From NCBI GenBank assembly GCA_000004695.1, contig CM000155.2, positions 96,001 through 160,000 on the forward strand: a stretch of 64,000 nt of DNA, in the 5' to 3' direction. Below the pieces are notes generated by a model. The model saw nothing but the letters and a program-made list of their open reading frames with translations. It searched no databases and had not been told where the DNA came from. The stretch is from Dictyostelium discoideum (taxonomy: Eukaryota). Of the stretch, positions 4,903 through 47,261 are shown piece after piece. The translations under genes and the position numbers were made by a program. Every line of letters begins with the position of its first letter. Positions within the stretch are counted from its first letter, which is position 1.

Positions 4903-6198
4903 TTTTTTTAAATCCAAAAACATGTTAATAATTTTTTTTTTTTTTTTTTTTTTTAAAATGGGAAATAAAGTTAACGCAATTTTTTGAATTGGACAATGGT
5001 TTCAAAGAAATGGAATATTTGGTAAAGTTAACATTTTGTTCTTTAAATGGTCAACTAGAAGAGGATGAATTTTTAATGAATTTATTATCATGTAGACCAA
5101 AATATAATTCTCAATTCCATCTAACCACCATTTTAAAAGATAATTTACAATTTGGTGGATGCAATAACGGTGCTATAAAAAATGATTCATTATTTTCTTT
5201 TTATTTTTCAGAAATAATTAATTTTGAGAAATTTTATTTGTAAGTAGTTTTTTTTTTATTATTTATTTCTTTTTTTCAATATTTACTATGGTTACTAATT
5301 ATTATTATTGAAATTATTATTGTTTATTACTTATAAAAGGCCATTAATAAAAAAACAAAATTTACAATTACCAAATGATAATGATGAAATTAAAATAGCA
5401 ATAAAAAATTTAAATGATGTTATTTTATTAAATATTTTCAAGTATTTAATATTGATCAAGGGTGAAACGAATGAAAATGATGAAGATGAAAATATTTATA
5501 AAAAAAAGTATTATGGTTTTAAAAATGGAATAGATATTGTCAATGTTTCAATGGTTTCAAATAGATTTTTTAAGTTAATGAAAACTGCACTATCATTAAT
5601 TGATTGGAGTCAATATGACAATATAGAATTATTAAAGAGTGAGGTCGATTATGATTGTGAAAAATGTTTAATTAAAGAGCCACCATCCTTCACAAAGTAT
5701 CATATATTATTAAGAACAACCAGTGGCACTTTATTTAAACGAGTTTCTCAATCAATTGAAACATTGGTAATTGATACAATTGGGGTATGCCCACGCAATT
5801 TTTTTCTTTTTATAGTGGATTCTTGTAATATTGCCCCTCCATTTGGTTCATTTGAAAATCTAAAATCTTTGGTTATTATTGGTAGAGTATCTGTAATGGG
5901 AAGCCAAATTAGTTGTGGTGTATTTGGTTTACCCATCCAATATATAATACTTAATGGAAATGCCAAACTGGTCAACTTTACTTTGGTAGATAAAGTTAAT
6001 GCTGAATCTTCTTATGATATCGATTTCATTAAACAACTTTTAAACTGCCATAAAAATACCTTAAAATCATTTAATTTGGTTTGTAATAGTATGAAATCAA
6101 AATATCACATGGATAAAATTATTAAATTAATTCATGCCATACCCACAATTAAATTAACTCTTTATAAAGGTAATAAAATAGTAGAAAAATTGATGTAA
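4153..6198 (+). CDS. Hypothetical protein (~591 aa) with an F-box-like motif and LRR-like C-terminal region. Proposed exons 4153..4800, 4971..5239, 5340..6198.
   Basis: Three same-strand ORFs join in frame through GT...AG introns (donors gtaatt at 4801 and gtaagt at 5240; acceptors aaataaag|4971 and ttataaaag|5340). Total 1776 nt = 592 codons. Intron 1 is almost entirely a (TTA)n microsatellite. The motif DVILLNIFKYLIL resembles an F-box. No strong homology recognised. Confidence 0.5.
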
Positions 6199-40447: not shown

Positions 40448-41910
40448 TTAAAATGATTCATCATAAGATTTAGTAGTAATTGAAGAGTATTCTTCAGAGG
40501 AAGTTTTAGTTGCAGAAGCGAGATATTCACCAGATCTTGATGGTGATAAGAGGAAAGAAACACCAATGAGAGCGAGAGCATTAGTGGTGACATAGAAAGC
40601 GAGAACTGTTTTTTCACGTACCCATGGTTCGACTGCGGCGGCAATGATACAAATAATTGGAAGGATTAAGAACCAAGCAACAAATGCAATACCAAAGACA
40701 GTGTAAAAGTTACGTTTGGCTGGATGAGTTTCTTCTAAATATGTATTATAACCACACCACATAAACCATAACATTGCTAAACTACGTGCTACCAATAAAA
40801 TAATACCTGGTACTGTATCATACATATAGGTGGTTGCTGCTGGATTTTCACCTGCTTTAATCCAAACAAACATAATGAAATATAATACTGTTAAAACACC
40901 CATAGCACCTAATACAATTCTCTTTTCATCAATTGTAACACGTGAAATTGCCCATCCTTTTGCAATTAAAATTAATAATAAAATAAATAATAATTGTGCT
41001 GCTAAATCTAAAACTATTAAATTTAAAAAAAAAAAAATAAAAAATAAAAAAATAAAATAAAATAAAAAAAAAGATTAATATTACTTCATATATATTTTTT
41101 TTTTTTTTGTGTGTAACTTAAAAATCCAATTTTTTTTTTTATTTTTTTTTTTTTTTTCCGAAAAACGAAAAAAAAAAACAAGAAAATAATTAAGAAAAAA
41201 AAATAAAACTTACGTTCACCAAAACCTTGAGCACCTTTACCACCAGTACCATTATGAGAATAAGAACCATAATTACAAAGGAGTACAAAAACAGAAAGGA
41301 ATTCTAAAACGATGACACCTGAAAGAATTTTGATCATTGGATGGAATGCATTTGCTTTATATAATTTGAATGCTGTAAAGGCAGTGTAACCAGTTAAGAC
41401 TAAAAATACGAAAAAGTAAACCAAATATAATGCTTCGAGACCTTGTTCATCGTAAGAGAATTGGGCTGACCACAAACCACCGCCATTTAAGAGGGTGAGG
41501 GTGAAATCAACTTCACCAACTTCACTATCACAATTTGCTGCAACGACATACCAAAAATGGGCACGTTGGTGATCCTCTGGTAATAAGACTCTTGATGAGT
41601 TGGCTGAAAGTTGATTCATATTGGTTTGTGGAGTACTTGCTGTCACTCTTTCCAAACAACTATATTTACTATTACCACCTACACCCCATTCAGTGGCCCA
41701 ATCGTTGTAAATGTAAATTGATGTACTTGCGTTTGCTGCTGTTCCAACGTATGATAATGAAGCACCTGGTGTTGTACTGTAACAGAATTTTGCTAAAAAT
41801 ACAAAATTATTATTACTATTGATTTTCTCCTTTACAACCATACCATTGCTGACATTGCAAATTAAAAATCCAATTAAAATTGTAAACAAAATACTTGTTT
41901 GTTTTAACAT
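40448..41910 (-). CDS. GPR107/GPR108-type (Lung_7-TM_R / GOST) seven-transmembrane protein, ~420 aa. Exons 41910..41214 and 41013..40448.
   Basis: Signal peptide MLKQTSILFTILIGFLICNVSNG, a luminal Cys-containing domain, then seven hydrophobic helices (...LYLVYFFVFLVLTGYTAF..., ...LILIAKGWAISRV..., ...WFMWCGYNTYLEE..., ...FVAWFLILPIICII...). Intron c|GTAAGT to TTAATAG (phase 1, 200 nt, poly(A)-rich). Confidence 0.75.
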
Positions 41911-42043
41911 TTTGTTTTTTTTTTTTTTTTTTTCCTACTTCTTTTAATTAATTATTGTTTTAAGTGCGCAATTCAATTTATTTATTCTAAAAAAAAAAAA
42001 AAAAAAAAACTTAAGGCTCAAAAAAAAAAAAAAATTTAGATTT

Positions 42044-42081
<38 letters not shown>

Positions 42082-42458
42082 AAAAAAAATAAAATAAAAA
42101 AAAATTTCAACAATCTAGTAGATTACTAGATATTTTAATTTTGATTTTAATTTTTTTTTTTTATTTATAAATTTTATTTTTATTTATTTTTTATTTTTTT
42201 TTTTTTGGTATTTTTTTTATAATTTTATCTCTTTTGAATTGTTTTTTTTTTTTTTGTTTGGTTGCCTTCTTTAAGATAAAATTTGGTCAATTTCTTTTTG
42301 TCATTTCCACTTTTGTTTTAAAAATTTTTATTTTTGAATTCAACCACCCAATTATTTCCTTTTTCTTTAAATATAAATTCTGAGTTTCATACTAATTACC
42401 CAAAATTTTCATTTGAACATAATCCAAAAAAAAAAAAAATTTTTTTGTTCTTTCAAAA

Positions 42459-42680
42459 GGTGGGGCAATGGTGGGGTTTTTTTTTATTTTTTTGGATTAT
42501 TTTTTTTTTTTGGATTATTGCTCTGCCAAGAATTGCAATAATCCAAAAAAATTCTTGCTCTGCCAAGAATTGCAATCCAAAAAAAATAAAAAAAAACCAC
42601 CATTCCTCTGGGGAATTTTGTTGGATTATTTTTTTTTTTTTTTTGGGTTGCAATTCTTGGCAGAGCAACAAAATTCCCCG
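42459..42680. repeat. Cluster of nested direct and inverted repeats (hairpin-forming). Candidate MITE-like element or structured ncRNA in the GPR107-gene upstream region.
   Basis: TTGGATTATT / AATAATCCAA inverted pair flanking GCTCTGCCAAGAATTGCAA (42511-42549). A second direct copy of GCTCTGCCAAGAATTGCAA at 42556-42574, and its reverse complement TTGCAATTCTTGGCAGAGC at 42649-42667. Outer inverted pair GGGGAATTTTGTTG (42611-42624) / CAACAAAATTCCCC (42667-42680). The track ORFs 42334..42764 on both strands are palindrome artefacts (LQFLAEQ on both strands). Confidence 0.6.
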
Positions 42681-42932
42681 TAATTTTTTTTTTTTACGAA
42701 AATAAATCAAAGGAATGGTAGTTTGAGAAAAAAAAAAAAAAAATAAAAAAATTAAGTTCCCCAAAAGAAGAACATCAAAAGAAAGAAAAAAAAAAAAGGT
42801 TTTAAATTATATAATTTAACAAATATTTATTTAATTTTTTAAAAAATACTAATAAAAAATATAAAATAATAAATAAATAAATAAATAAATAACAATTTTG
42901 AAATAAAAAAAAAAAAAAAACAAAAGATACAC

Positions 42933-43991
<1,059 letters not shown>

Positions 43992-44828: not shown

Positions 44829-45084
44829 ATGATTAATATGATTGATAATAATAAAGGCATCAATAAATTAGATGCAGCAATTTATTATTATCTGGTTGAA
44901 AAAGGGATGGCAAAAACAGCTCTATCATTTTCACAAGAAATGAACTTTGATATTGGTGGGCTGAGTCCACTACTCTCAAATTCATCCCATTTATTATCAA
45001 AAGGTTGGGAACAATTAAATTCAATTGGATTTTTCAATAATCAAAATATTCATATGACAAGTAGTCCAATTAGTATTAATAGCA

Positions 45085-45117
<33 letters not shown>

Positions 45118-45154
45118 GCAATGGCAATAATATTCATTTAAATAATAGTCCACC

Positions 45155-45190
<36 letters not shown>

Positions 45191-45605
45191 CAACCCGCCA
45201 AATTTCTTAGGTAACAACAATACAAATAGTAATAATAATAATAACAATAATAATAATAGTAATAATAAAAACAGCTTTTTATTTCAAAATCCAAACCAAA
45301 TAGCAAATCCTTCTTTTTTTTCATCAGCCAATCCCTCAACTAATAATATAATACCGCCAAATCCAAATCCAAATTCTAATAATAATAATACTGGTAATAG
45401 TGGAGGCTTAATTTTAGATAATTCAGCCACAAACTTTTTCCAAAATGTAAATAGTAGTGACAATAATAATAACAACAATAATAATAGTGGTAATAATGTT
45501 AATAACAATAACACGAACCAATCCATTTTTCTCTCATCTCAAAAACAACCGATTCAAACCGAACCAAAAAATAATACTAACAACACCAATAATATTAATC
45601 CAAGC

Positions 45606-45658
<53 letters not shown>

Positions 45659-47261
45659 CAGTAGCAGTAACAATACCAATAATAATAATAATAATAATAA
45701 TATTGATAATTTACAAAGTTCAATTTCATCACAATTACAATTATCATCCCCACCGTCAAGTTCCCCAATTGCAACATCAGCAATGTCCCCAAATAATTTG
45801 GATACAAACCAAATACTCCATACAATAGGGTGCAATATCGAGCATATTCACAATCAATTTTGTAATATGTTGTTTCAAAATCAAACAAATTCATCACCTT
45901 CTTTGTCTACCTCTCATACTTCAATGAACATAACTAACGAGCCAGCAAAAATTTTAGATAAAAAATCACAATTTTCAATTCAATCTCAAAATGATGATAA
46001 TAATACTACTAACAATAATAATAATAATAATATTAGTAATAATAATAATAATAATAATAATAGTAGTAATAGTAGTAATAATAATAATCATGGTAACAAT
46101 CGCAATATTCATAATCATTCACATGGACATAATCAACACAACCATGGCCATGGTCATAATCAACACAACCATGGACATAATCATGGCCATCATAATCATG
46201 GGCATGGACATAATCATGGACATCACAATCATGGCCATCATAATCATGGTCATAATCATAATCATAATCATGGTCATAATCATAATCATGGAAATCACAA
46301 TAATGGCCAAAATACTCCAATTCACAATCATTTTTCTAGTGCACCAATACCAATTGGATCTAATAATAATAATAATAATAAAACAACCACTACAACAACT
46401 ACTACAACAACAACAACGAATAGTTCATCACCAAGTGATGGAATTAATTTCAATTTAAATAGTAATAGTAGTGATGTTGAAAGTTATTTAATAAAATCCA
46501 TTGGTGAAGGAGGTGAAGAGAAATTCACATGTGACTATCAATCATGTGGTAAATCATTTAGTACATTGGCTATATTTAAACGACATTTAAAAGAACATAC
46601 TGGTTGTAAACCATTCGTTTGTACTGAAGAGGGTTGCAATAAAAGATTCTCAAGAAAATTCGACTTAAAGGTACATTTACGTTCTCATACAGGTGAAAAG
46701 CCTTATCTTTGTACATTCCCTGGTTGTAGTAAAAGATTTGCTCGTTCCTCTGATTTACGTCTTCATCAAAGAATTCATACTGGTGAGAAACCTTTTGTAT
46801 GTGATTGGGAAGGTTGTTCAAAAAGATTTATTCGTCAAGCTGATTTAAAAAAACATAGAAAAACACATCAACTTAATAATAATAATAATGCAGCAGCAGC
46901 ATCATCATCATCTTCATCATCTTCGTCACATCCACATGTTCATAGTGTTGGTTGTGGTCATACAGCAATAGCTCATGAAGGTCATATCGATTTTTTACAC
47001 GATCGCCATTTACATTCAATGAATCATGATCATGTTGATCATAGTATTGAAGTATCCGAAACCAATCCTACAAGTTGTACTCCTAAATTCGTTTGTAGTC
47101 ATCATCCTGATGGTTCTTCTCATTCAATGGATTGTGGTCATGAAATTGTTCCACATTTTGACCATTATGATTTCTTGGTCGATGGTCATCTTCATCATGT
47201 ACATGAAGGTCATTGCGATAATCATGGTTGGGTTGAAGTAATAAATAACTTTATGAAATAA
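44829..47261 (+). CDS. Putative transcription factor, 810 aa: N-terminal LisH motif, long poly-N/poly-S linkers, an ~75-aa His-rich (HGHNHGH)n tract, four tandem C2H2 zinc fingers, and a His/Asp-rich C-terminus.
   Basis: LisH: INKLDAAIYYYLVEKGMAKTALSFSQEM. Zinc fingers: CDYQSCGKSFSTLAIFKRHLKEH, CTEEGCNKRFSRKFDLKVHLRSH, CTFPGCSKRFARSSDLRLHQRIH, CDWEGCSKRFIRQADLKKHRKTH with TGEKP linkers. An imperfect CATAATCATGGN repeat encodes (HNHGH)n. Internal or antisense track ORFs (45284-46458) are rejected. Confidence 0.85.

Follow-up and report, generated by a model that had tools for sequence, protein, structure and literature searches.

Why does the spacer between two genes of Dictyostelium discoideum hold three identical copies of one short palindromic sequence, two in direct and one in inverted orientation, and how did they come to be there? 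The cluster lies in the window, by which the whole 64-kb stretch of DNA analysed is meant here, and a preliminary description of the sequence had put it forward as a candidate mobile or RNA element. These two readings are weighed below together with those of a small-RNA gene, of a regulatory module and of DNA expanded in place, using the structure of the cluster itself and the same locus in sister isolates and related species.

The repeat cluster and its genomic setting

The cluster is built on a 19-nt sequence, GCTCTGCCAAGAATTGCAA, which had been reported as occurring twice directly and once as its reverse complement. All three occurrences are exact (42520-42538 and 42557-42575 on the plus strand, 42648-42666 on the minus strand), and the true shared length is somewhat greater: the inverted pairs agree over 21 nt (TTGCTCTGCCAAGAATTGCAA) and the direct pair over 22 nt. 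The three copies are as follows.

42518-42538, plus strand: core copy 1, the tandem partner of copy 2 (period 37 nt, 26 nt at 96% identity)
42555-42575, plus strand: core copy 2, duplicated from copy 3 in inverted orientation; it provides the base of the main hairpin and belongs to a lineage-specific block
42648-42668, minus strand: core copy 3, exact TTGCTCTGCCAAGAATTGCAA on this strand; the ancestral copy

Every core is itself a small palindrome (TTCTTG-N6-CAAGAA, TTGCAA..TTGCAA). The 64 kb contain no further match to GCTCTGCCAAGAATTGCAA at up to three mismatches, and three matches to the 19-mer were reached in none of 100 shuffles. In a window-wide scan, the core pairs were the only exact inverted repeats of at least 14 nt that are not of low complexity and are spaced by no more than 400 nt. 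Shuffles and scan thus bear out the earlier impression that the cluster is not a product of chance. The preliminary description also gave each copy a pair of flanking inverted arms, which is correct for copy 1 only. This copy is directly flanked by TGGATTATT (42511-42519) and AATAATCCA (42537-42545) and is the only one so flanked on both sides, whereas copy 2 has different neighbours (AAATTCTT on the left, TCCAAAAA on the right) and copy 3 a distant one, the nearest TGGATTATT being 17 nt off with a T-run between. TGGATTATT alone is weakly enriched, with nine occurrences in the window against 3.2 expected.

The same structure is found in a second, independent D. discoideum assembly (L004, GCA_054883475.1), which is 99.8% identical over 41801-43100; since it carries the same three copies, an assembly artefact is excluded. 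Besides L004, syntenic loci comprising methyltransferase, spacer and 7TM gene were taken from six other assemblies: D. discoideum ACTFIW (L001) and ACTFIR (L006), D. cf. discoideum ACTFIZ (L005) and ACTFIY (L007), D. dimigraforme (L002) and D. firmibasis (L003).

Composition and coding content mark the window as Dictyostelium DNA, and it is of the D. discoideum chromosome 6 type. The placement of the cluster in an intergenic spacer upstream of the 7TM gene was confirmed. The spacer between both genes measures ~1 kb, and the cluster lies 550-770 bp upstream of the 7TM start codon and ~250 bp downstream of the stop codon of DDB_G0291654. The 7TM gene (exons 40448-40903 and 41086-41910, minus strand, ATG at 41910) encodes a 420-aa GPR180/TMEM145-type protein. 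On the other side, the ORF at 43014-43991 (minus strand) is exon 1 of a class I methyltransferase and, together with a short last exon, matches D. discoideum AX4 DDB_G0291654. The methyltransferase intron contains a ~170-bp AAT/ATT trinucleotide tract (43018-43190), which a naive ORF reads as poly-Leu; the true last exon (IVNHVDQLLSKGEFIGSEATYIVCTK, then stop) ends near 42933.

Several further features of the neighbourhood were recorded. At the left edge of the cluster (42459-42476) stand two tandem G-rich heptamers, GGTGGGG-CAAT-GGTGGGG, of which ACTFIW has one (GGTGGAG). These tandem half-sites may correspond to the paired G-box/CAE sites bound by Dictyostelium GBF, which they resemble. Further away, an 810-aa ORF (44829-47261, plus strand) encodes a zinc-finger protein of the C2H2 type that contains very long runs of Asn as well as a tract of HGHN/HNHG repeats. 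An exact-protein look-up found no record of the 810-aa product, and its orthologues measure 807-900 aa across isolates, the differing lengths suggesting rapid repeat-length evolution. Exact-protein look-ups of two spurious ORFs that run across the hairpins gave no further assemblies or transcript contigs, and no searchable paper names the genes of the locus by their identifiers.

Hairpins and inverted pairs

That the region can fold into long hairpins was expected from the repeats, and the fold check agrees: the segment 42440-42730 folds far better than its shuffles on the two strands (z = -8.4 and -8.5). The paired elements are listed here.

42552-42671: main hairpin, with 43-nt arms (42552-42594 and 42629-42671) that are 93% complementary and a 34-nt loop
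42510-42547: small near-perfect hairpin around copy 1, TTGGATTATTGC ... GCAATAATCCAA; the segment 42508-42550 folds at -18.3 kcal/mol, z = -5.9
42610-42623 and 42666-42679: 14-bp inverted pair GGGGAATTTTGTTG/CAACAAAATTCCCC, enclosing copy 3; an alternative to the main hairpin
42474-42498 and 42574-42598: outer A/T-rich inverted pair with 25-nt arms (88%), the left arm ancestral, the right arm new in the AX4-like lineage
42679-42698: mini inverted repeat CGTAA-T(n)-TTACG, in which CGTAA is lineage-specific and TTACG ancestral
42599-42607 and 42711-42719: 9-bp inverted pair ACCATTCCT/AGGAATGGT, ancestral, with both arms kept in ACTFIW and ACTFIR; it brackets the right half of the cluster
42440-42460: decayed remnant of an older inverted arm, TTTTTTTGTTCTTTCAAAAGG, where ACTFIW has CAATTTCTTGTTCTGCAAAGAGCC

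The main hairpin is the strongest: the segment 42548-42675 gives -60.7 kcal/mol (z = -10.7) on the plus strand and -58.8 kcal/mol (z = -11.2) on the minus strand, with pairing over 42555-42668, which amounts to about -0.47 kcal/mol/nt (-60.7 kcal/mol over 128 nt). The base of its stem is nearly perfect over 24 bp and is not of low complexity, and pairing of A-runs with T-runs makes up more than one third of the stem. The 14-bp inverted pair had been described as bracketing the entire cluster; the pair exists, but it surrounds the third copy and nothing more of the cluster's cores. Several of the hairpins are mutually exclusive, and the two tandem 5' arms (copies 1 and 2) compete for a single 3' arm (copy 3). 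The two strands fold equally well, as is expected of a DNA palindrome and not of an evolved RNA.

Over the whole window, Rfam returned no match at gathering score. In a permissive scan of the locus, the matches below threshold were to generic models of long-hairpin miRNAs on both strands, at no more than one third of their gathering scores (the best, MIR9471, scoring 49.8 bits against a gathering score of 150). A scan for tRNA and tmRNA found none.

The locus in sister isolates and related species

Conservation in other Dictyostelium species, which had been proposed as a check on the element, was looked for, and the three-copy structure proved to be confined to the AX4-like lineage: among the loci compared, only the window and L004 have all three cores. 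ACTFIW and ACTFIR possess one copy each, with 2-3 mismatches, at the position of 42648-42668. No core copy within four mismatches was found in D. dimigraforme, D. firmibasis, ACTFIZ or ACTFIY; the ACTFIY alignment holds a more diverged homologue of the core at the 42648-42668 position.

The sequence around the cores differs in the same way. ACTFIW is 87-89% identical to the window on both sides of the cluster, and a counterpart of 42494-42583 is absent from ACTFIW, ACTFIZ, ACTFIR and ACTFIY according to the alignments and, for ACTFIW, to two BLAST segments; at this site ACTFIW has ~20 nt of unrelated sequence (CGCACCAAATCGAAACCAA). AATTCCCC (42672-42679), part of the right arm of the 14-bp pair, is lineage-specific, its place being taken in ACTFIW and ACTFIR by a homopolymer A/T run (poly-A in window orientation). 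ACTFIW has the left arm of the outer pair (GGAGT9AT9GGAT) and lacks the right one. Its CAATTTCTTGTTCTGCAAAGAGCC, at the 42440-42460 position, is an inverted relative of the core that agrees at 15 of 17 positions, an arm that has decayed in AX4. A weak foldback thus existed before the new copies. Only the AX4-like sequence folds strongly, with z of -6.1/-6.9 in the window vs -2.7/-1.2 in ACTFIW, -1.2/-1.4 in ACTFIZ and -2.5/-3.3 in ACTFIY.

The one ancestral core shows 2-3 differences in 21-24 nt from the sisters, which are ~88% identical overall, and is therefore no better conserved than the spacer around it. With D. firmibasis and D. dimigraforme, BLAST alignment is limited to 41801-~42300 and ~42885-43040, and the cluster lies outside both segments. 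In a neighbour-joining tree built on the methyltransferase exon, ACTFIW and ACTFIR are the sisters of the AX4-like lineage, and ACTFIZ, D. dimigraforme and D. firmibasis fall outside this group; the position of ACTFIY is uncertain, and the ancestral state is read from the assemblies of few isolates. On this tree, parsimony favours one gain in the AX4-like lineage over repeated losses.

The same spacer has been rearranged elsewhere in the complex. In ACTFIR, a ~230-bp inversion relative to ACTFIW and AX4 (L006:4270-4600, about window 42326-42600) includes part of the 7TM upstream region. It has inverted duplications at both breakpoints, GAATGGTGGTTGGTTTCGATTT/AAATCGAAACCAACCACCATTC and TCACTTTTTTTTAAAAA/TTTTTAAAAAAAAGTGA, and is an independent event. 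Such an independent rearrangement of the same spacer points to a site prone to palindrome-mediated rearrangement. ACTFIY carries the methyltransferase 3' end twice (L007:3808-3997 and 5724-6048) and has a spacer of 2.7 kb, and the D. dimigraforme spacer measures 2.8 kb (L002:1240-4062) vs 0.6-1.0 kb in loci other than ACTFIY.

Two observations concern the isolates and the gene family more than the cluster. ACTFIW and ACTFIR, both deposited as D. discoideum, differ from the AX4-like lineage by ~4-5% in the methyltransferase exon and by 10-13% in the spacer, and on the methyltransferase side the ACTFIR spacer diverges by ~20%. Divergence of isolates on this scale far exceeds what is expected within a species, so ACTFIW and ACTFIR may represent cryptic sister species. 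On the same contigs, every species of the complex also has further methyltransferase paralogues (~71-77% identity), and since their locus tags are near that of the orthologue, the family is apparently a local one.

Origin of the extra copies

The sequence gained in the AX4-like lineage is centred on one block.

42494-42583: AX4-like lineage-specific block of 90 nt, holding copies 1 and 2 and two GGATTATT motifs

This block tiles onto its own flanks in forward or reverse-complement copies. The 21-mer, present twice in the block, is the reverse complement of 42648-42668; an 18-mer (GGATTATTTTTTTTTTTT) is a direct copy of 42623-42640; a 10-mer (AATAATCCAA) is the reverse complement of 42621-42630; and a 19-mer (T12GGATTAT) corresponds in reverse complement to 42419-42437. 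Three or more other changes specific to the AX4 lineage are each complementary to an ancestral neighbour: the new AATTCCCC (42672-42679) pairs with the ancestral GGGGAATT, the new CGTAA with the ancestral TTACG, and the new AATCCA8TA9CC (42574-42598) with the ancestral GGrGT9AT7-9GGAT.

The ancestor of the D. discoideum complex thus had one core copy, at 42648-42668, and a few short imperfect inverted repeats nearby. The AX4-like lineage has since gained at least four segments, each a direct or reverse-complement copy of sequence within ~150 bp, and from these result the three identical 21-mers as well as several hairpins that are near-perfect and in part exclude one another. The added copies and arms represent the derived state, are of recent and local origin and lack conservation. 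Their recent date is indicated by the copies being 100% identical at a locus that is ~11% diverged from its sisters.

Two of these features are expected of replication template switching. What is new has been copied in reverse complement from the vicinity, and, as judged from their assemblies, the sister and outgroup lineages appear to retain the ancestral state, which lacks the extra copies. Template switching creates perfect hairpins in one step (PMC10710096), expands inverted repeats in promoters (PMC13100816) and is known to homogenise their arms. The cluster is therefore probably a lineage-specific expansion of inverted repeats in place, driven by template switching during replication, and most likely neutral DNA. 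A replicating polymerase would have changed template, within a strand or between strands, from one arm to the other of imperfect inverted repeats, and one tandem slippage would have been added to these switches. No single switch-and-return (four-point) event covers all segments; several segments and one tandem duplication are involved. A ~114-nt hairpin with the architecture of D. discoideum pre-miRNAs would have arisen as a by-product.

Neutrality is judged most likely because the cluster occupies the least conserved part of the spacer and its core is no better conserved than the surroundings; it is read from the lack of conservation alone, and a very young functional element would have the same appearance. 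The repeated gain of hairpin potential, first as the older arm that has decayed and later as the new arms, might alternatively stem from selection in favour of a hairpin. As to origin, the cluster is most probably an ordinary, new instance of a known mutational process.

Could the hairpin be a new small-RNA gene?

The cluster could be a new-born hairpin small-RNA gene, that is, a proto-miRNA or a hairpin siRNA locus, transcribed through 42552-42671 as a ~43-bp stem, from whose GC-richer base the Dicer-like protein DrnB, acting with RbdB, would cut a ~21-nt duplex, UUGCUCUGCCAAGAAUUGCAA/UUGCAAUUCUUGGCAGAGCAA. We consider this unlikely. The known miRNA hairpins of D. discoideum measure ~105-180 nt at -0.51 to -0.73 kcal/mol/nt, with near-perfectly complementary 5p and 3p strands, and come mostly from single intergenic loci that are less AT-rich than their surroundings (PMC6161686; PMC11014262). 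Almost all are species-specific, and the origin of these near-perfect intergenic hairpins is unexplained (PMC11014262). At ~114-128 nt and -0.47 kcal/mol/nt, with its nearly perfect stem base, the main hairpin comes close to this class; its energy is below the -0.2 kcal/mol/nt, and its duplex pairing at or above the 60%, that Liao et al. (2018) ask of high-confidence hairpins. Their criteria also call for ten or more reads for each of 5p and 3p, a 2-nt 3' overhang, a shared 5' end and dependence on DrnB. Upstream there are T-rich runs ending in G (the G at 42256/42264 on the plus strand and at 42773 on the minus strand) that resemble the reported pri-miRNA start motif, although such runs are common throughout the D. 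discoideum genome. Template switching is, moreover, a documented source of new miRNA hairpins (PMC10710096).

The small-RNA record points the other way. The sequences are absent from the miRNA tables of Liao et al. (2018) and from the searchable supplements of Meier (2016), both of which report deep small-RNA sequencing of AX2/AX4-type cells. No mature miRNA listed in the tables searched maps to the window, the core does not occur as DNA or RNA in the searchable full text of the literature, and no candidate target was found in the 64-kb window. The share of the stem that is A-run/T-run pairing, over one third, also speaks against a processed hairpin.

A fuller version joins the two readings: template switching would have turned a weak ancestral foldback into the ~114-nt hairpin, which would now be transcribed, for instance as a read-through product of DDB_G0291654 or starting at a T-rich motif, and processed by DrnB, so that a miRNA or hairpin-siRNA gene would have been caught at its birth. 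This conjunction is distinctly improbable. If true, it would be the first documented small-RNA locus born by template switching in Amoebozoa, with the state before birth kept in sister isolates.

Could the cluster regulate the 7TM gene?

The cluster might instead act as DNA, as a cis-regulatory module of the 7TM gene or as a spacer element between the tandem genes, which we regard as improbable. The three cores and the G-rich GGTGGGGCAATGGTGGGG box would then be multimerised sites for dimeric transcription factors, and their expansion would have altered expression. No Dictyostelium factor is known to bind this core. The position, -550 to -770 from the ATG at 41910, and the palindromic nature of the cores would suit such a role, as would the recurrence of related TTCTTG-N-CAAGAA palindromes in the orthologous spacers of ACTFIW, ACTFIZ and ACTFIY and the possible kinship of the tandem GGTGGGG half-sites with those bound by GBF. 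In yeast, expansion of inverted repeats by template switching in promoters can change expression (PMC13100816). Against this reading, the ancestral core is conserved no better than the neighbouring spacer, and the cluster falls outside the promoter block that is shared with D. firmibasis and D. dimigraforme.

Could it be a mobile element or a conserved RNA?

Insertion of a MITE-like non-autonomous element, or of a fragment of a dispersed repeat such as thug-S, upstream of the 7TM gene would fit a cluster that is compact, has many inverted repeats and occurs in one lineage but not in others, and some D. discoideum miRNA loci belong to the multicopy thug-S element. The comparison of loci makes it very unlikely. 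The core pre-exists at the same position in the sister lineages and the added sequence comes from the flanks; the 'empty site' of ACTFIW is not clean, with its ~20 nt of unrelated sequence. Target-site duplications, which the preliminary description suggested seeking at 42459/42680, are not visible there or at the block edges 42494/42583, beyond homopolymers. Neither the 64 kb nor the flanks of the seven related loci (~60 kb) contain a second copy. A metagenome scan for the 19-mer gave eight matches in four unrelated contexts, which were taken as chance, and a scan of viral contigs gave none; neither scan is informative on copy number in the Dictyostelium genome. On these grounds the proposal of a MITE is not supported.

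A reading as a structured non-coding RNA under conservation, for example of the snoRNA, class I or riboswitch-like kind, is scarcely credible, for although the folding energy is very low on both strands, no Rfam family claims the locus, and the orthologous loci lack both the paired segments and the structure (z -1.2 to -3.3), so that the suggestion of an RNA element is not supported in its conserved form. By the tests run, which covered the 64 kb and the related loci, the cluster belongs to no known RNA or transposon family.

Significance

Taken alone, the cluster is a small structural variant and probably neutral. Its interest lies in the availability of both the state before (ACTFIW, ACTFIR) and the state after (the AX4-like lineage), which makes the birth of a hairpin in place visible in an extremely AT-rich genome. 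Loci of this sort suggest a concrete route by which the miRNAs of D. discoideum may be born.

Comparison with known systems

MITEs and thug-type repeats are, like the cluster, short, non-coding, rich in inverted repeats and found in one lineage but not in others. Unlike them, the cluster has no terminal inverted repeats delimiting the block and no target-site duplication, is derived from its flanks, and has no other copy in the sequence available.

Plant miRNA genes can originate by inverted duplication, which gives a long near-perfect foldback. The cluster shares this step, an inverted duplication leading to a long near-perfect foldback that could evolve into a miRNA, but its source is neighbouring intergenic DNA and not the future target gene.

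The miRNA precursors of D. discoideum itself (mir-1176/1177, mir-1178 to mir-1185 and mir-7095 to mir-7105; PMC6161686, PMC11014262) are comparable in length, energy per nt and arm complementarity. Like them, the cluster is a single intergenic locus with a GC content above that of its surroundings, is found in one lineage and has upstream T-rich runs ending in G. It differs from the listed miRNAs in that no small RNA is reported from it, in that much of its stem pairing is homopolymeric, and in having two 5' arms for one 3' arm.

The closest parallel is with template-switch mutations (Monttinen, Frilander and Loytynoja, 2023, PMC10710096; Rozenfeld et al., 2026, PMC13100816). The cluster departs from these in comprising several nested events and a tandem duplication in place of one clean four-point event, and in lying in an amoebozoan spacer of 80-87% AT, where A/T runs provide much of the pairing. 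In common with them, it contains the reverse complement of sequence from tens of bases away, its imperfect inverted repeats have been made perfect and longer, it is lineage-specific, non-coding and promoter-proximal, and it yields hairpins of the size of miRNA precursors.
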